DNA of 64,000 nucleotides from a virus. The notes under the pieces were generated by a model. The model saw only the letters and a list, made by a program, of their open reading frames with translations, was not told where the DNA came from and ran no database searches. Location of the stretch: the UHGV virus genome UHGV-0125821, one strand, 5' to 3'. Shown piece by piece: positions 3,877-42,864 of the stretch. How positions within the stretch are numbered: position 1 is the stretch's first letter; the number at the start of each line of letters is the position of its first letter. A program made the translations under genes and the position numbers.

Positions 3877-4268
3877 TGTACGGGACTACCAAATTAAGCA
3901 CTCAACAGGCCACCAATATGGAGTGGTCTATCGCTAACTGTAAGATCGTGTCATGCAATGCCACGCGTACTGATGTGGGCCATAAAAGCACTATAACAGG
4001 CTATCTAGTAATGACCACCAGGGGGATGAGGGTTAGCTTTCGCTGGAAAGCAGAGCAAGTAACGCCATTCAGAGAGCCATCAATGCCGCTGCAGGTTGAG
4101 CAGGATTATCTATGTTTACCAGAAATAGATGGCGGAATGCTGGTGGAGTCTGATGGTAGTAAGGCTGATTTTGAAGCCAATTTGAAGCTGGCACAGGCCG
4201 TAATCAATAGTTATCGCGGAAAGTGGATCGCAAAAGTGAAACATGTTGTTCGTTTGTCTCGCTGGTAG
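3876..4268 (+). CDS. hypothetical protein
   Basis: ATG overlaps upstream stop (TGATG); no family recognised. Confidence 0.55.
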   Translation: MYGTTKLSTQQATNMEWSIANCKIVSCNATRTDVGHKSTITGYLVMTTRGMRVSFRWKAEQVTPFREPSMPLQVEQDYLCLPEIDGGMLVESDGSKADFEANLKLAQAVINSYRGKWIAKVKHVVRLSRW

Positions 4269-4376
4269 CGTTAGGTATTTAATATTAATTTTCTAATACA
4301 ATCATCTTTTTACCAGTCTATACAGTTTTAACATTCTCATTATCATCCCCTCGGTCATTTCCTGCCCGGGGGATTA

Positions 4377-13076: not shown

Positions 13077-13457
13077 TCAAATATTGGAACCAAATAATTC
13101 ACGTAGTTTTTCCGCTACTGAAGATACGGGGATTTCTCCAGTTGCGGCCCCCACCGCAAGTTCCACCAGCACGGGAGAATCATATACCTGTATACCGTTA
13201 CGGCGTAGAAATAGCAGCGCACTGTTTAGCGCGGTACGCTTATTGGCATCATTGAATATATGCCCTCTCGCCGTAGCCACCAGGTAGGTGGCGGAGACTT
13301 CGAAAAGGTCGGTGATCTCTTCGTAGGCAACTCTGGCCTGAACTCTCCCGATAATGGCCTCTGCCCTACCCGGATCTGACATTCCCGGCAGGCCGCCGTA
13401 GCGGCTTATATTCGCATCATGAAGCGCAATAAGTTCTTCCGGTGATATATGCCTCAT
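13077..13457 (-). CDS. doc: Doc toxin (Fic-fold kinase)
   Basis: near-identical over most of its length to P1 Doc as I recall it. Confidence 0.9.
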
Positions 13458-13678
13458 TATCGGTTAACCAGTTCCTTGTTGGTGGAGTCCAGGGTGTCAA
13501 ACAGGGATGCAAATTCAGCATCCAGCGCCGCTTTTTTGTAGGCTTCAAAAGTAGCCTTGCTGACAATTACTGCTGGCTCTCGGCCTCTGCGGGTGATTTC
13601 AACCTCTTCCCCGGCTTCAACATTGTTGAGCACTTCAGAAAGGTTGCCGCGCGCGGTACGGAAGTTAATGGATTGCAT
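13457..13678 (-). CDS. phd: Phd antitoxin
   Basis: [49 protein letters not shown]... matches P1 Phd from memory; start set at second Met. Confidence 0.9.
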
Positions 13679-13786
13679 AAACACCTCGTGTGCTCGTTAT
13701 GTGTACGCAATTATAGGTTTTAATGATGCTGAATACCACTTCTTGGTGCCTTAAATCCTCGAGATGCAGTCTTGCAATTGCTGGGA

Positions 13787-30746: not shown

Positions 30747-31475
30747 TCATTTTTTTGAAAGATCAATTCCAGTATTATCAAACAAACTGGAAATATCAGA
30801 CACCAATTTATTAAAATGCTTGTCATCATTATAGAATGATGTGCTTTTTATAGCGACTATAAAATCACATAAATCTTGCGGAGATTCAATGCTAACCCCC
30901 TTATTTTTATATAGTTCAATAATACTGCCAACATCAGTATGCAATAGTTTTATCGCGCCACAAATTTCTCGCTGTTTCGTAACCAAGTCATTAAGTTTAT
31001 TTTCATTTTCATCTAAGATTTGTTTTGAATATTTAGCGTCATTGGTTGCTTGATTTAACTTTGTTTTCTTTCTTTGCAATTCTATTCTTTTATCATAATC
31101 AGCAACTTCATCTAAATATCTTATTTCAGTGTATAATTTACTTGTTAGCTTAGATATCTTCAGTGTGAGAACAGGAGCTAACACAGATGCAAATACTCCA
31201 TAAACAAATGGGATTACAACGTGATAAACCCACGGGGATACAATCCAATTATCAATGAACGGGACATTACCACCAACAGAAACAATAGATAATGTATATA
31301 GGATGTCGTCCTTTGACTTTAATATAATTAAAATATCCTTCCAGTTAAAAATTAGAAAAGAAATGACAACATATGCAAAAACCTTGTTAAATATTTTATC
31401 TTTTATTATTTCAGAAAATGATTTTAGTTCTGTTTCATTTATAGACGGATTATCTTTAACTTTTTCTGACATCAT
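30747..31475 (-). CDS. membrane protein with cytoplasmic coiled-coil domain, very AT-rich gene
   Basis: 2-3 TM helices then Lys/Asn-rich coiled coil; SD AGGA before ATG. Confidence 0.6.
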   Translation of the reverse strand: MMSEKVKDNPSINETELKSFSEIIKDKIFNKVFAYVVISFLIFNWKDILIILKSKDDILYTLSIVSVGGNVPFIDNWIVSPWVYHVVIPFVYGVFASVLAPVLTLKISKLTSKLYTEIRYLDEVADYDKRIELQRKKTKLNQATNDAKYSKQILDENENKLNDLVTKQREICGAIKLLHTDVGSIIELYKNKGVSIESPQDLCDFIVAIKSTSFYNDDKHFNKLVSDISSLFDNTGIDLSKK

Positions 31476-31496: not shown

Positions 31497-31697
31497 TTAT
31501 GGATAGTTAAAAGATTCAACAGGTGATGGTGGTTGAATTGGGTAATGTTTCTTCTCGTACTCCTCAATGAGAAGACTCATAACCTCAAAGAAATCACCTT
31601 CCGGAGTATTCATTTCCGGTTCGTTATCGAACATCGGTTCGACCGCACGCAGTGCGGCCTCATAATCTTGTTCTGTACGGATAGGTTTAATGTTCAT
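31497..31697 (-). CDS. 66-aa protein resembling the N-terminal domain of HigA-type antitoxins, no HTH
   Basis: IRTEQDYEAALRAVEPMFDNEPEMNTPEGDFFEVMSLLIEEYEKKHYPI; no obvious SD. Confidence 0.45.
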   Translation of the reverse strand: MNIKPIRTEQDYEAALRAVEPMFDNEPEMNTPEGDFFEVMSLLIEEYEKKHYPIQPPSPVESFNYP

Positions 31698-31710
31698 TAA
31701 TTACAAAGGA

Positions 31711-31737
31711 AAGCCCACTTGCTAAGTGGGCTTTTTG
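31711..31737 (+). terminator. intrinsic terminator-like hairpin
   Basis: AAGCCCACT tgcta AGTGGGCTT followed by TTTT. Confidence 0.5.
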
Positions 31738-31753
31738 TATGTGTTTTACTATA

Positions 31754-32092
31754 TCAGGCTGCTTTTTTATTCAGGTTCCGCTGAGAAATAAATTTTTCAG
31801 CAGTATTGATACGACTTAACTCTTCCTGAACGCGCATATCATTTTCGACTTCCCACAGATCTACTGCGGTCTGAAGATTAATCCAAAAATCTACAGAAGT
31901 ATCGAATGCTTTTGCCAGGCGATATGCCATATCCATCGTTAGCTTACGATTGTTATTAACAAGAGCACTTACGGTGTTACGATGAACATGAAGTATTTCT
32001 GCTAACTCGTTGATCTTCAGCTCTAACGGCTCCAGGTATTCGTACAGCAGGATATCACCTACGGTCGTCGGTTTTCTGGTTGCCTGTTTCAT
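31754..32092 (-). CDS. higA: HigA-family antitoxin (XRE-type HTH)
   Basis: TTVGDILLYEYLEPLELKINELAEILHVHRNTVSALVNNNRKLT. Confidence 0.8.
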   Translation of the reverse strand: MKQATRKPTTVGDILLYEYLEPLELKINELAEILHVHRNTVSALVNNNRKLTMDMAYRLAKAFDTSVDFWINLQTAVDLWEVENDMRVQEELSRINTAEKFISQRNLNKKAA

Positions 32093-32162
32093 TTTTTGCC
32101 CTTACTAGCGTGCGTATTAAGTGGACTCTGGTCAGAACCCGGTCCGTAACCGGGTATCTGTT

Positions 32163-32465
32163 TTAGTATTTGTGAGGGTCGAGATACAAGTCCTCGGCCT
32201 TTCCGTTAACCCACTTAAAAATTAACCTATATTGCTTATTCACCCTTACTGATGAATAGCCATTTAGCTTCCCTGACAGTTCCTCATACCGATTACCTGG
32301 TGGTGATCTTAAATCCTTACAGGTAGTTGCGGCATTGATAATGTCCAACTTCCGTGACAATGTCATATGAATATCAGGAGGTATCTTTCTATGTGGTGTT
32401 GAAAATTCAAAAAAATCATCAAGCCACGCATCCCTGAAATCCTTTATGTTAATTTTTTTGGTCAT
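32163..32465 (-). CDS. higB: HigB-family toxin (RelE/ParE superfamily)
   Basis: DFRDAWLDDFF...HRKIPPDI...LRSPPGNRYEEL...RLIFKW...LYLDPHKY. Confidence 0.8.
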   Translation of the reverse strand: MTKKINIKDFRDAWLDDFFEFSTPHRKIPPDIHMTLSRKLDIINAATTCKDLRSPPGNRYEELSGKLNGYSSVRVNKQYRLIFKWVNGKAEDLYLDPHKY

Positions 32466-32627
32466 TAGTCATTTGATCCTCCGTGATGATTACCGAATGC
32501 CATAACTATAGCGCACCGTTGCACTGTGCGCAAGTGCATTTTATGAATTCCCCCTCCTTCATCCAAAATCACAATCTCCAGAAAATCTTCCTTTCGATAC
32601 CTGACAGATCGACCTTTGAGGATGCTT

Positions 32628-33419
32628 ATGGGCCGTTTTGACGAATGGTTTGCTGACGATGCAAACCTGGCAAGTAAGGAGTCAGAACATGACAGCACGC
32701 AGAGAGAAACGCCAGCGCCGATTGAAGCGAATGCAGGAGGCGCGCCGGAACATGGCAATACCGGTTCGGATTCATTCAGCATTCTGGAAGAGCAACCCGC
32801 CGCCCAAGCTGATAGCCATGATAATTTTGCTGATAGCAACGGTGGCCTTACTCCGGATGCTGGCGAATCAGATATAGCCATACTTCCATCTTCCCTGGCT
32901 GGCAGAGAACCGACTCCACAGTTAAAAGCACGCTATAACGGGCATAAAGCCTTTAACGACCAAATCCGCGCAGACTGGATGCTGATTATTGAATCCAGCC
33001 CAGACGCGTTTCAGGCTCTCTTATATCGACCAGATGTTGGCACATATGGGGTAGTCAGCGACGAAACAGGAGAAGAGTCATTCACTGAACTGGATAACAA
33101 CCAACGCGAACTGACTTACCAGGAACCTGAAATCGTTTATGTGCTGGATAACCCTGACGGGCGTGACTCTTTCCATGCGATTGACGCAGACGGTGAGCAG
33201 GATGGCTTAACCGATGATGTTCTGATTCTGCGTATTGCAGCAAATAACGTCCCCGTCGGCTCAATTCTTGAATGGAATGAAGAGATGGTAAACGGCGTAG
33301 CGCGCCGCTGGTGGTACGTGCACCGTATTTTTAGCTACGGCACACAGCATGTTGGTTCGCTTTACTACTGCATACCTGCCAGGAATTTTGATACGACTCA
33401 AAACGGAGTGATCGAATGA
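32628..33419 (+). CDS. hypothetical acidic protein, possible virion component
   Basis: start set at MGRFDEWF with SD GAGGA. Confidence 0.6.
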   Translation: MGRFDEWFADDANLASKESEHDSTQRETPAPIEANAGGAPEHGNTGSDSFSILEEQPAAQADSHDNFADSNGGLTPDAGESDIAILPSSLAGREPTPQLKARYNGHKAFNDQIRADWMLIIESSPDAFQALLYRPDVGTYGVVSDETGEESFTELDNNQRELTYQEPEIVYVLDNPDGRDSFHAIDADGEQDGLTDDVLILRIAANNVPVGSILEWNEEMVNGVARRWWYVHRIFSYGTQHVGSLYYCIPARNFDTTQNGVIE

Positions 33420-34183
33420 CTTCAAATAAAACCCTCCTGGCGCGAACAGGTGAATGGCAAACCTCACGCACAGGAAAATTCCAGACCACGGGCTTTGAAA
33501 ACGTGGATAACGCGTTTGCGACGCTAATCAGCAACATTTTTTCTGATATCTTACTGGTGGCCCCCGCGCCGGAAGAAAAACGCTTTGCGTCATTCCTGAA
33601 TCGTCCACCAGCAGAGCGTGTCTATGTGGCCCGTTTCGACAATGCGATCGAGTTTCTTAAAGCAGTTCGTCGCGCAAATGCCGGGCAAGGGAGAAAACCT
33701 GAAAACCAGAACATTAACCGGGATGCTCTCCCCCTGGTCAATATCTCACGCACTATGGATATCAATTATATCAACGATGATCAGCAGATTGACCGCAAAA
33801 AAGTAGCCAGTTTTTGCGAACCGGATACCGGAATGCCTTTAGCAGAACTGGAATACACCCAGGCCATTCTGACGTATGACGTTACGTTAATGGCAACTGA
33901 TAAAGCGACCATGAGTCTGATGTGTAATTCGCTGGGCGCACGGCTTCGCCTGATGACAGGTACACAATTTGAAGCAACCACTCACCTTGTTCGTGTCCCG
34001 GTCCCGCTGATTTGCTCGATACAGGATGCCAAAGAAGTCGGCTTTACGGATGTTTCAGCACCAATTGGAGAAGAGCGTATTTATGCCACACAAGCGCCGA
34101 TAAGTGTGATTGCAGACGTGATCACAGCATGGGAGTTGGACGCAAAACGTATTATTACCGAAACCTCGATATCTATGGGGTGA
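33416..34183 (+). CDS. hypothetical protein, possible baseplate or tail component
   Basis: coupled to neighbours in plus-strand block. Confidence 0.55.
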   Translation: MTSNKTLLARTGEWQTSRTGKFQTTGFENVDNAFATLISNIFSDILLVAPAPEEKRFASFLNRPPAERVYVARFDNAIEFLKAVRRANAGQGRKPENQNINRDALPLVNISRTMDINYINDDQQIDRKKVASFCEPDTGMPLAELEYTQAILTYDVTLMATDKATMSLMCNSLGARLRLMTGTQFEATTHLVRVPVPLICSIQDAKEVGFTDVSAPIGEERIYATQAPISVIADVITAWELDAKRIITETSISMG

Positions 34184-40322: not shown

Positions 40323-40610
40323 TTATTTTGCTTCCTCAGACTCCGCTAACATGAGGATAGCATGGCGGATCATATTCAATTTGCTGCGATTATGCTTTTT
40401 ACTTAACGCATCAAGTACCTGGTACTCGTATTCATTGAAACCAACACGAATAGATTTAAAATCACGTGGAGCGTCCTTATCGAGCACTTTGTTGTCTTCT
40501 GGTTGCTCACCTGGCACCAAATCAGCCTTACTGGCAAAATCCTCAATTCGGCGTTCAAGATCGGGGTCTTTTACTTCGGGGGCTTTTACCGATTTACGAG
40601 GCTTAATCAC
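40323..40610 (-). CDS. parG: ParG-like ribbon-helix-helix partition protein
   Basis: C-terminal RHH-like SIRVGFNEYEYQVLDALSKKHNRSKLNMIRHAI; coupled to ParF-like gene. Confidence 0.7.
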   Translation of the reverse strand: MIKPRKSVKAPEVKDPDLERRIEDFASKADLVPGEQPEDNKVLDKDAPRDFKSIRVGFNEYEYQVLDALSKKHNRSKLNMIRHAILMLAESEEAK

Positions 40611-41244
40611 TTAATAACTCCTTAACCAACATCTGGATTTCACCTTTAGCTTTCCCGTTGTCCATCTCAACAACGCCCTTCCCTTCAGCCATGCAATCGC
40701 GGTAAACCTTACGATCACGAATGATGGTTTTCAGCAACTTCAGTTGCGGATATTCAGCCAGGTACTCTTTGGCCTCATTGGTTTCATTCACAACCGGATT
40801 GGATGGGGCCATTGTTAAGACTGCGAACGCCTTAATGCTAGGATTAGGCATCAGGTCCAAAGCCTCTTCAAACACTTCAACAAAGTGTGCCAGCGTGTCT
40901 AAATCTGGTTGAGATGGTCTGAATGGGACCAACACAATATCTGCAGCGGTTATGCCTGTACGCATCTCTTTGCTATCGCGCCCGGCTGTATCAACAACTA
41001 CAAATTCATAACGCTTATCCAGATCGAGAAGTGTTTCTCGAATATTACCAAACTTCTGGACACAATGAATAACAGGAGAAACCTCTGCCGTGTTACGGTC
41101 AGCTGCCCAGCGGGCAGCTGTTCCTTGCTTGTCTGCATCTAGTAACACTACATCCTTATTTGCGCGGGCAAGCTCCGCACAGATGTTTACGCTTGTGGTT
41201 GATTTTCCACAGCCACCTTTTTGGCTGACTACCAATATAATCAT
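40603..41244 (-). CDS. parF: ParF-like (type Ib ParA) partition ATPase
   Basis: Walker A KGGCGKST; start set at ATG with SD GAGGAA. Confidence 0.8.
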   Translation of the reverse strand: MIILVVSQKGGCGKSTTSVNICAELARANKDVVLLDADKQGTAARWAADRNTAEVSPVIHCVQKFGNIRETLLDLDKRYEFVVVDTAGRDSKEMRTGITAADIVLVPFRPSQPDLDTLAHFVEVFEEALDLMPNPSIKAFAVLTMAPSNPVVNETNEAKEYLAEYPQLKLLKTIIRDRKVYRDCMAEGKGVVEMDNGKAKGEIQMLVKELLSD

Positions 41245-41404
41245 ATCCGTTCCTCGGTGTGATTTTGGTATCAAAACGGTTCCAGATAAGAGCCTTTTTG
41301 ATGCGGGACAGGCTCTATAATGGAGTCATGAATGTTTGGCAAAGTATAACATCAATCAGACCAAATACACCTTATATTGCATCCTATTTAACACGAAATC
41401 AGCC

Positions 41405-41531: not shown

Positions 41532-41876
41532 TCAATCAGGTAGAGAGTCAGCCAGATTGCGCGCCGACGCGCTTTTGGCAACAACTTGCTCCTTCACTGG
41601 CTCAATGGAGGCAGGGCGCTCCTCAACCGCAGCTGGTAGTTCCAGGAAGGATGCCAGCATTTTTCGGATCAGCTCCGGATTATTATCTTCGGTCAGCAGG
41701 GAAGCCAGTAATCCTGGAAGCCTGCTATCGACTTCTCCCAGCGCAAGCCCTGCCAACAATGCGGTTCTTGCCATATCGCTATGTTTTTTTATCTTCTCGC
41801 TCGCCGCCTTTTCATTAGCATAAGCCTCTGGGCGAAGATAAATCATCACTTTCTTACGTTCCTGAGACATGGACAT
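41532..41876 (-). CDS. parR: ParR/StbB-like centromere-binding protein
   Basis: ARTALLAGLALGEVDSRLPGLLASLLTE parallels R1 ParR. Confidence 0.7.
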   Translation of the reverse strand: MSMSQERKKVMIYLRPEAYANEKAASEKIKKHSDMARTALLAGLALGEVDSRLPGLLASLLTEDNNPELIRKMLASFLELPAAVEERPASIEPVKEQVVAKSASARNLADSLPD

Positions 41877-41883
41877 TACCTCG

Positions 41884-42864
41884 TTAACCGATTGCTTTCA
41901 GGCCATGAACAAGAGCAAGTTGCGGGTCATCCGCCACGAAGAAACGGTCATCACGAATATTAACTTGCTCGCGAATTGCATCTGCCACCAGCGGTGCGCC
42001 ACCACCGATCACCATGACATGCGTATATCCTTTAAAGTCGCCAATCACATCAAGAACGCGGGTACGCAGACGGTCAATGCTTGCGGCAATGGCCTTTTTC
42101 ACATCACCAATCGCTGATGGGTCATTGATATTGTCGTTCAGATAATCTTCATCGTGGCGGTTAATAATGAGCTGATCGACATTGTAATTTGACGTTTCGG
42201 TATTGGCTCTGGCAAGTGCTTGCCTTACTTCCCTGGTAACCAGAGAGACGCCAAGATTCGAATCGCCAAAAACACGGGAAACTGCCGTCATTTGCCCGGC
42301 GACCATTGAAACATCAAGGGTAGTTCCACCCAAATCGACGATAAGAACAGAATGGGCAGGGTTCAGATTGTCGCACAGGCCAATTCCTGCCGGAATAGAC
42401 TCCGGGCGTACCGTAACTTTCTTAATCGTGAACACATTGCCTTTATTCAGCGTGACGGGGCGCATAAGGCTGGCTTTCTTGCGCTCGATGTTATCGAGAT
42501 TGTATTGCGCGTCGTCGTCGTAAAACTCCGCCAGAGGCAGCGTGACCACAATTTCTACTTCCTGCGGCTCAATGCCACTTGTCAGCAGGGCATGGTGAAC
42601 AGCCAGGACGTTAAGCGGGCTGTATTGCCATTCCACGTTATTCGTCGGCAGAACATCTGGCGAGATCAAATCATACGAATACTTTTCGTCGTCAATGACA
42701 TAGTTAAACGGCTTGCCCGCACCAAATGTTGCTGACCATCCGCGCTTAAAGCTGTTAGGGCTGATGTGAGTGCGAGTTTCCCCGTCGTGCTCCCACAGCA
42801 TTTTGATATTGGTTGAACCATCATCGATAAAAATGCGCATCTTCTTGCTCCACTTCTGAGACAC
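41884..42864 (-). CDS. parM: ParM/StbA actin-like partition ATPase
   Basis: FIDDGSTNIK ... IVDLGGTTLD ... VMVIGGGA parallels R1 ParM. Confidence 0.85.
   Translation of the reverse strand: MSQKWSKKMRIFIDDGSTNIKMLWEHDGETRTHISPNSFKRGWSATFGAGKPFNYVIDDEKYSYDLISPDVLPTNNVEWQYSPLNVLAVHHALLTSGIEPQEVEIVVTLPLAEFYDDDAQYNLDNIERKKASLMRPVTLNKGNVFTIKKVTVRPESIPAGIGLCDNLNPAHSVLIVDLGGTTLDVSMVAGQMTAVSRVFGDSNLGVSLVTREVRQALARANTETSNYNVDQLIINRHDEDYLNDNINDPSAIGDVKKAIAASIDRLRTRVLDVIGDFKGYTHVMVIGGGAPLVADAIREQVNIRDDRFFVADDPQLALVHGLKAIG

Follow-up and report, generated by a model that had tools for sequence, protein, structure and literature searches.

The window analysed here, a 64,000-nucleotide stretch of viral DNA (UHGV-0125821), comes from an E. 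coli plasmid prophage of the D6-like, P1-related type. It is syntenic with phage D6, for instance in its P1-like tail genes, its phd-doc pair and its par genes. Phage D6 shows 99.2% DNA identity over the higBA module region, and the 89-kb plasmid NZ_CP029365.1 is about 97% identical across the window. Within the window, we identified a higB-higA module in a variable accessory-gene slot, bounded by tail genes that resemble genes 25 and 7 of P1 and outside the replication/partition region. All features described below are on the minus strand. The module is already annotated and present in the literature, so its novelty is low: the D6 record lists one RelE-family toxin and two HigA-family antitoxins at this position, and PGAP labels the identical sequence as a toxin, an antitoxin and a truncated HTH pseudogene. 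A location between tail genes, rather than in the replication/partition region, would also fit a role in defence or competition.

The first gene of the module, higB (32163-32465), encodes a 100-aa RelE-fold toxin that in a profile search covers the full PF05015 domain (HigB-like_toxin; positions 1-91 of 91; E=4.4e-35; 120.5 bits, cutoff 27). Directly adjacent after a 70-nt spacer lies higA (31754-32092), encoding a 112-aa, YbaQ-like XRE-HTH antitoxin that matches TIGR02607 (antidote_HigA; E=7.9e-30; 102.5 bits, cutoff 47.7), HTH_3 (E=7e-11; 42.4 bits, cutoff 23) and the structure of E. coli YbaQ (2eby; E=1e-53). Both genes thus score above curated family thresholds, and the toxin-first HigB/HigA pair called at these positions in the initial annotation is borne out.

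The best solved-structure relative of the window HigB is P. putida GraT (6f8s_B, E=2.8e-14). GraT/GraA (6f8s) and the Rts1 HigB/HigA pair of Proteus vulgaris (4mct, 4ypb) resemble the window module in having a PF05015 RelE-fold toxin encoded first and an XRE-HTH antitoxin, but the window HigB is distant from GraT and more so from Rts1 HigB (E~2e-3). In the alignment with P. vulgaris HigB, the Asp and His at the C-terminus of that protein fall opposite Asp96 and His98 of the window toxin, and the position of Tyr91 in Rts1 HigB is occupied by proline. The HigB protein is 100% identical in most relatives of the element. Comparisons with the chromosomal paralogues gave pN=0.13 and pS=0.86 for higB against higB-1, and pN=0.12 and pS=0.77 for higA against ybaQ, values that indicate purifying selection on both genes.

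Upstream of higB, we located by eye a candidate promoter with an overlapping operator (32505-32538), comprising a -35 hexamer TTGCGC (32533-32528), a 17-nt spacer and a -10 hexamer TATAGT (32510-32505). The -35 hexamer matches at only three of six positions, and the promoter was not listed by a promoter scan. Overlapping this candidate promoter is a palindrome, TGCACT-N7-AGTGCA (32520-32538), that is unique in the window (0.18 occurrences expected), and the same region contains a second inverted repeat at 32511-32531. Between the two genes, the 70-nt spacer contains a stem-loop (ACCCGGT...ACCGGGT; 32137-32155) with a predicted folding energy of -20.8 kcal/mol (z=-2.5). At the 3' end of the module, 19 nt past the higA stop codon, we found a terminator-like hairpin (31710-31734) whose arms (31710-31720 and 31724-31734) form an 11-bp stem with 100% complementarity and a 3-nt loop. 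The hairpin was scored as terminator-like on both strands in a terminator scan, and its region folds with -17.9 kcal/mol (z=-3.3). The coding-strand T-tract that follows is weak (CCTTTGTAAT), so termination here may be partial. An Rfam search of the region at E<=1 returned sub-threshold terminator-like matches and no structured RNA.

The ATG of a 66-aa ORF (31497-31697) lies 12 nt beyond this hairpin, and the claimed hairpin between it and the higBA pair is present, with a perfect stem and a weak T-tract. By homology to D6 orf72, we identify this ORF as the 5' remnant of a 119-aa HigA of the K-12 (YgjM) type. Its residues 1-60 are near-identical to the intact, 119-aa orf72, with divergence beginning past window position 31516 (codon 60/61), and orf72 in turn aligns over residues 6-112 with E. 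coli K-12 HigA (5ifg_B, 5ycl_A; E=8e-8). Searches of Pfam and NCBIfam found no C-terminal HTH domain in the 66-aa ORF. PGAP flags it as a pseudogene (‘incomplete; missing C-terminus’), and among its plasmid homologues in PLSDB, 393 of 473 are full length and 80 records carry the window-type truncation. The ORF also matches positions 1-65 of the PADLOC profile PD-Lambda-2_B (E=2.5e-16), phrog_1373, and phrog_10398 over its entire length (1-66 of 66; E=1.6e-42). Because phrog_10398 is made up of exactly the 66-aa form, the ORF might be read as a complete protein from some other small-protein family, the outcome that would have counted against the initial annotation, but this PHROG just gathers truncated antitoxin copies. 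With near-identity to 119-aa proteins over the first 60 residues, the lengths of the plasmid homologues and the PGAP call of a partial gene all against it, that reading is refuted. Compared with the full E. coli K-12 HigB/HigA pair (YgjN/YgjM; 5ifg, 5ycl), the window remnant lacks both the toxin and the C-terminal HTH/dimerisation half. The alignments thus identify the ORF as a C-terminally truncated K-12-type HigA, in which the N-terminal domain was kept and the HTH half deleted.

Relatives of the element show what this slot contained previously. In pTB423, pNCYU-26-73-5 and several IMG/VR relatives, a PF09907 HigB gene lies directly upstream of the 119-aa HigA gene in the same slot, forming an intact second pair (L003, L004, L011, L026, L028, L029, L032 and L033). 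The PF09907 toxin resembles K-12 HigB (E=1e-7), and its gene is found in 21 PLSDB records. The suggestion that a second toxin-antitoxin locus had been disrupted next to higBA is thus supported by the intact PF09907 HigB and 119-aa HigA pair that a search of relatives recovered from the same slot. The alignment with pTB423 (L003) also delimits the exchanged segment: homology with the window covers 31507-31704, stops, and resumes at 32566. The intervening 861-bp cassette (31705-32565) comprises the promoter/operator, higB, the spacer, higA and the terminator hairpin, and in its place pTB423 carries 383 bp (3890-4272) corresponding to the PF09907 higB and its promoter. In the window, no cognate PF09907 HigB is found upstream of the 66-aa ORF, and its stop codon alone is left: the window sequence ...G TAA TTA ATG aligns with ...GAG TAA ATC ATG of pTB423, placing the vestigial TAA of the replaced K-12-type higB at 31701-31703. 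These junctions show that it was the higBA cassette that broke up the second locus, replacing exactly the toxin gene and promoter of the older pair. Phage D6 carries its higA-higB genes (MF356679, orf70/orf71) in the same slot and with the same junction to the older antitoxin, but there the older antitoxin is full length (orf72, 119 aa), compared to 66 codons in the window.

The replacement also removed a GGAG Shine-Dalgarno sequence that formerly lay within the last toxin codons and is missing ahead of the 66-aa ORF, and a promoter scan upstream of the ORF found none. Nor does the window offer other binding sites for the lost antitoxin, a search with the K-12-type operator palindrome from pTB423 (GTCCCA-N3-TGGGAC) having given nothing significant. 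Where the 119-aa antitoxin is still linked to its toxin, all eight copies are intact. Of the 20 copies orphaned by the cassette, eight are intact and ten show the window-type truncation; the copy in L025 is interrupted by a nonsense codon and that in L030 by a frameshift, amounting to three independent lesions at codons ~53, 60/61 and 69. All ten sequenced window-type truncations share the same junction and are always paired with the window-type allele of the neighbouring 242-aa gene, and so represent one event. The antitoxin’s HTH half was lost later and separately, in a swap of that downstream gene. What is left, the 66-aa ORF, is most likely a pseudogene in decay that is expressed poorly.

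The 242-aa gene (phrog_8191 by PHROG match; 30747-31475) shares the slot but lies outside the higBA module. It is hypervariable among relatives, and its D6 allele shows 74% DNA identity and ~56-59% protein identity to the window allele. We found no Pfam or PADLOC match for the protein. An AlphaFold model reached a poor pLDDT of 54 from 4 sequences and 74.6 from 14, the latter depicting an extended helical protein; Foldseek searches with the model against viral and PDB libraries returned nothing below E=1. No relatives turned up when GTDB genomes were scanned with a sequence pattern. We considered whether this gene might be the missing toxin of the orphan antitoxin and rejected the idea, as the 119-aa gene is retained in pTB423 and pF719-4 although the 242-aa gene is missing there, and intact PF09907 toxins lie upstream of the antitoxin in relatives.

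A chromosomal origin of the incoming cassette is not supported. Of 5426 complete E. coli genomes, 76 contain the cassette, in every case on a plasmid; no chromosome matched at megablast level. The chromosomal higB-1/ybaQ pair of E. coli phylogroups B2/F has the same families in the same order, with a toxin 80% and an antitoxin 78% identical to those of the window, but its DNA identity of only ~70% means that it is not the direct donor. The plasmid pair further differs in having its own terminator and an extra 35 nt between the genes, an insertion missing from the chromosomal spacer that contains the stem-loop at 32137-32155. The two pairs share an 18-nt core of the candidate promoter, TGCACTTGCGCACAGTGC, the palindrome at 32520-32538 is conserved with the higB-1 promoter, and the chromosomal promoter is reported by Rousset et al. 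to contain a YbaQ motif, suggesting that YbaQ may recognise the same operator as the window HigA. Rousset et al. found that ybaQ becomes essential only in the presence of an intact higB-1 and that ybaQ knockdown derepresses higB-1; toxicity of the window HigB is suggested by this 80%-identical homologue, studied by others. The same authors note that the antitoxin ybaQ is kept without its toxin, with its function unexplained. We counted 4833 chromosomal ybaQ matches among the 5426 genomes (~89%), mostly without the toxin. Chromosomal YbaQ could therefore neutralise or repress the plasmid module, weakening addiction in most hosts.

We also compared the locus with PD-lambda-2, a validated defence system whose component A is HigB-like (Vassallo et al, 2022). 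D6 orf72 matches the PD-Lambda-2_B profile over its first 119 positions (E=4e-43). In PD-lambda-2, however, the HigA-like domain of component B is followed in the same protein by a C-terminal peptidase and the third component is P4-antitoxin-like, and neither is present in the window. We therefore rejected membership in this system: the profile match ends at position 119 of 402, there is no peptidase domain, and the third gene is the unrelated 242-aa protein.

The element also encodes other stabilisation functions, and the phd-doc module and two partition gene sets that had been proposed alongside higBA were all located. The phd (13457-13684; PF02604, E=3e-13) and doc genes (Fic/DOC; 13077-13457; PF02661, E=3e-9) span 13077-13684. 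In the region 41532-42864 are parM (41884-42864; PF06406, E=2e-69, with PF21523 also matched) and a parR/stbB-like gene (41532-41876; PF10784, E=3.5e-11). The second set (40323-41274) consists of a ParA-like Walker ATPase (40603-41274; matches to AAA_31, CbiA, MipZ and VirC1) and a downstream 95-aa gene for which a Pfam search gave no match; it is a putative partition system, judged from the ATPase and the gene arrangement only. A paper on D6-like prophages (e.g. pYU39_89) describes phd-doc and higA-higB as their two post-segregational killing systems.

Taken together, these data make it likely that the locus, on a D6-like prophage, is a complete PF05015/TIGR02607 HigBA operon that replaced the toxin of a K-12-type pair, with the 66-aa ORF as a remnant of the older antitoxin. 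By analogy with the family, HigB would act as a ribosome-dependent mRNA endonuclease, and a HigA dimer would bind HigB and repress the operon through the palindrome. On plasmid loss, the labile antitoxin would decay and HigB would arrest growth, so that higBA, alongside phd-doc, ParMR, the ParA-like system and Cre/lox, would help to hold the prophage plasmid in its lineage. As to the older locus, replacement of its toxin by the cassette cost the antitoxin its ribosome-binding site, and exchange of the downstream 242-aa gene cost it the HTH half.

Other roles for the module deserve consideration. The cassette might serve mainly in phage defence or in competition between mobile elements, by abortive infection or exclusion, at a cassette-exchange hotspot. 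Among relatives, this slot is home to three different HigBA-type cassettes: the PF05015 pair, the PF09907 HigB with the 119-aa HigA, and, in L031, a pair like YgjN/YgjM. The tail genes on either side are well conserved, the hypervariable 242-aa gene adjoins the slot, HigB-like toxins occur in PD-lambda-2, and the element is already equipped with phd-doc and two partition systems. We nevertheless regard this role as unlikely, since PADLOC has no match for the window HigB and only generic HTH matches for HigA, the subfamily has no known defence phenotype, and the published account of D6-like prophages treats the pair as a killing system. Similarly improbable is a module that does little in the usual hosts because YbaQ cross-neutralises HigB and cross-represses the promoter, leaving a mostly silent, selfish passenger that hardly stabilises the plasmid. 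The abundance of mostly toxin-free ybaQ, its 78% identity to the window HigA, the common promoter core and the retention of ybaQ without a toxin would all be accommodated by such silencing, but the 20-22% protein divergence in both partners may insulate the two pairs, and the complete conservation of HigB in most relatives together with strong purifying selection on both genes argues for activity.

The truncated antitoxin could also be more than debris, acting as a functional mini-antitoxin that uses toxin-wrapping N-terminal helices to counter the PF09907 HigB encoded by rival, incompatible plasmids of the D6-like group (anti-addiction). K-12-type HigA wraps HigB with two helices and carries its HTH at the C-terminus; all three independent lesions map to the linker, so that the N-domain ORF stays open; the truncated form, with its 80 PLSDB records, is the commonest allele; and the same hosts harbour plasmids that encode the cognate toxin. 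On the other hand, the ORF has no Shine-Dalgarno sequence, starts 12 nt past a hairpin and has no promoter found upstream. An N-terminal ORF necessarily survives any lesion further downstream, three events are a small post hoc sample, and hitch-hiking with the window-type allele of the 242-aa gene can account for how common the truncation is, so that we hold this function to be quite doubtful. An equally speculative picture, to which we assign a low probability, combines these ideas: the slot would be an exchange hotspot for HigBA cassettes, perhaps coupled to the 242-aa membrane/coiled-coil gene as a TA-driven exclusion or defence effector, with the antitoxin stub kept for anti-addiction.

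Under the favoured reading, a maintenance operon that displaced the toxin of an older pair, the practical value of these results lies mainly in annotation hygiene: the locus holds a standard HigBA module, next to which lies a fragment of a pseudogene, the small ORF, rather than a new gene. For any description of the module as an addiction system, a caveat is that most E. coli hosts carry a 78%-identical YbaQ that may share its operator. More broadly, the locus provides an example of toxin-antitoxin turnover on mobile elements, in which an incoming cassette displaced exactly the resident toxin gene, and the orphan antitoxin left by the replacement has since been struck by three separate inactivating lesions in different lineages.

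The toxin-first HigB/HigA pair that the initial annotation placed upstream of the 66-aa ORF was confirmed by profile matches. The higB gene (32163-32465, minus strand; 100 aa) matches PF05015 across the whole domain (E=4.4e-35), and higA (31754-32092, minus strand; 112 aa) encodes an HTH_3 protein scoring above the curated cutoff of the HigA equivalog TIGR02607 (E=7.9e-30). GraT of P. putida (6f8s_B) is the best solved relative of this HigB, and HigA matches E. coli YbaQ (2eby) with E=1e-53. All sequence criteria that we tested place the pair in the PF05015/TIGR02607 HigBA family. The hairpin reported between higA and the 66-aa ORF was likewise found (31710-31734), with a perfect 11-bp stem and a 3-nt loop between the higA stop codon and the next ATG; because its T-tract on the coding strand is weak, termination there may be leaky. 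The higB-higA spacer (32093-32162) contains another stem-loop (32137-32155), lacking a coding-strand T-tract and located in a 35-nt insertion absent from the chromosomal higB-1/ybaQ spacer, which could affect the toxin:antitoxin expression ratio. A 138-aa ORF (32465-32881, minus strand), which abuts the higB start and lies opposite the beginning of the gene 7-like tail gene, antisense to it, has no family match and no RefSeq annotation, and is probably spurious. Identification of the module as PD-lambda-2 was rejected.

The module region shares 99.2% DNA identity with Escherichia phage D6 and 100% with non-mobilizable E. coli plasmids of ~90 kb, among them NZ_CP029365.1, which aligns with the whole window at ~97%. 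The flanking genes in the D6 record are annotated homologues of P1 genes mat, 26, 25, 7, 24, 6 and 5. These sequence relationships identify the carrying element as a D6-like, P1-related plasmid prophage. As initially described, the window also encodes phd-doc (13077-13684) and two sets of partition genes: one comprises parM and a parR-like gene (41532-42864), the other (40323-41274) a ParA-like ATPase gene and its small partner. The closely related plasmid NZ_CP029365.1 encodes a glutamine-tRNA ligase (glnS; 84387-86048), adjoining its partition genes, and a TnpB-family RNA-guided endonuclease (32636-33805).

The 66-aa ORF (31497-31697, minus strand) aligns with the N-terminal part of HigA-like profiles and has no match in Pfam or NCBIfam. 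Its D6 counterpart, orf72, is a 119-aa protein annotated as a HigA-family antitoxin. The ORF tracks this sequence as far as codon 60/61 (window position 31516), past which the two diverge. Residues 6-112 of orf72 align with E. coli K-12 HigA (YgjM; 5ifg_B, 5ycl_A), whose HTH is C-terminal. RefSeq labels the identical sequence [quoted passage not shown], and tblastn found this antitoxin family in 473 PLSDB records, at full length in 393 of them and limited to residues 1-65, the window-type truncation, in 80. The ORF is therefore not a full-length member of a different family.

The initial annotation proposed that a second toxin-antitoxin locus had been disrupted, and an intact pair was found in relatives. 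In plasmids pTB423 and pNCYU-26-73-5, the same slot holds a 100-aa PF09907 HigB toxin (E=3.3e-34; E=1e-7 to K-12 HigB, 5ycl_B), and the full-length 119-aa antitoxin begins 3 nt downstream. This toxin also occurs in L011, L026, L028, L029, L032 and L033, all loci with the downstream 242-aa gene, and in 21 PLSDB records. Homology between the window and pTB423 covers 31507-31704 and resumes at 32566; between these points, the window has 861 bp (promoter, higB, higA and hairpin) where pTB423 has a toxin gene with its promoter (383 bp). At the junction, the old toxin's TAA is kept and the antitoxin's former ribosome-binding site, GGAG, is removed. Because D6, pF719-4 and a further relative (L006) have an identical junction, the sequences suggest that a single replacement event put the cassette in place of the older toxin. 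A more distant D6-like element (L031, 2153-3687) carries a YgjN/YgjM-like HigB (103 aa) and HigA (139 aa) in the same slot, here too with a 242-aa gene homologue downstream. pF719-4 (NZ_OY754396.1) encodes a further RelE/ParE toxin and HigA-family antitoxin between its mat-like and gene 26-like genes (1306-1877), a place where the window has no such pair.

The 242-aa gene downstream (phrog_8191; 30747-31475, minus strand) belongs to a very small family, with 50 representatives among 1.84 billion proteins, and a pattern scan of GTDB species genomes found no relatives. All 23 recovered loci place it in this slot of D6-like phage-plasmids, downstream of and co-oriented with a HigBA-type pair. Its identity between elements ranges from 35 to 100%; the gene 25-like tail gene, at the opposite end of the slot, is at least 96% identical in all but one of the 23. 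The protein is predicted to have membrane-like N-terminal helices and a ~110-residue helix; we found no structural or fold match, family match or known domain.

The antitoxin truncation invariably occurs together with the window-type allele of this gene, and all other alleles accompany a 119-aa antitoxin reading frame. This linkage, together with the junction inside antitoxin codon 60/61, indicates that a second event, exchange of the downstream gene, removed the antitoxin's HTH half and the intergenic hairpin. Among readable loci, toxin-linked antitoxins are intact in 8 of 8; the 20 cassette-orphaned copies comprise 10 with the window-type truncation, 8 intact, one with a nonsense codon at 69 (L025, 2512-2868) and one with a frameshift after codon 52 (L030, 2558-2915). 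In this small sample of related members, the pattern fits relaxed selection on the orphan antitoxin. Less probably, the 66-aa ORF is a functional mini-antitoxin: the retained N-domain corresponds to the portion of HigA that wraps the toxin in the K-12 structure, and the linker preceding the HTH is where all three independent lesions lie, a pattern noticed after the fact in few copies. However, the ORF has no ribosome-binding site and begins 12 nt past a hairpin.

By analogy with other HigB-family toxins (Rts1 HigB, GraT), HigB would cleave mRNA on the ribosome, HigA would bind HigB and repress the operon, and plasmid loss would free the toxin through faster antitoxin decay. A paper on D6-like Salmonella prophages names phd-doc and higA-higB as these elements' two post-segregational killing systems. 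A role in defence or competition is possible, as the slot, an accessory-gene island flanked by tail genes, holds three different HigBA-type cassettes across relatives, and HigB-like toxins are active in PD-lambda-2, although PADLOC gave no specific match. 

Upstream of higB, a palindrome unique in the window (TGCACT-N7-AGTGCA, 32520-32538) overlaps a candidate promoter read by eye (TTGCGC/17 nt/TATAGT), which a promoter scan omitted because its -35 matches at only 3/6 positions. The module shares an 18-nt promoter core with chromosomal higB-1, whose promoter contains a YbaQ motif; ybaQ is essential only where higB-1 is intact, and its knockdown derepresses higB-1 (Rousset et al.). The window toxin and antitoxin are 80% and 78% identical to the chromosomal pair, with saturated synonymous sites and low non-synonymous divergence. 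Across 5426 complete E. coli genomes, a sensitive DNA search matched ybaQ on 4833 chromosomes, in the ybaP-copA interval (L009, 2567-3246; L010, 2508-2849), with the toxin upstream in only ~400 of them; the higBA cassette occurs in 76 of the genomes, on plasmids only. The plasmid module and YbaQ may cross-talk.

Public records and literature already contain the module, with its annotation and presumed role. Our analysis adds the history of the locus, precise replacement of a toxin by another toxin-antitoxin cassette and then decay of the orphaned antitoxin. It also adds a reservation about plasmid stabilisation: most hosts would be only weakly addicted were YbaQ to cross-neutralise HigB or to repress the promoter on the plasmid.
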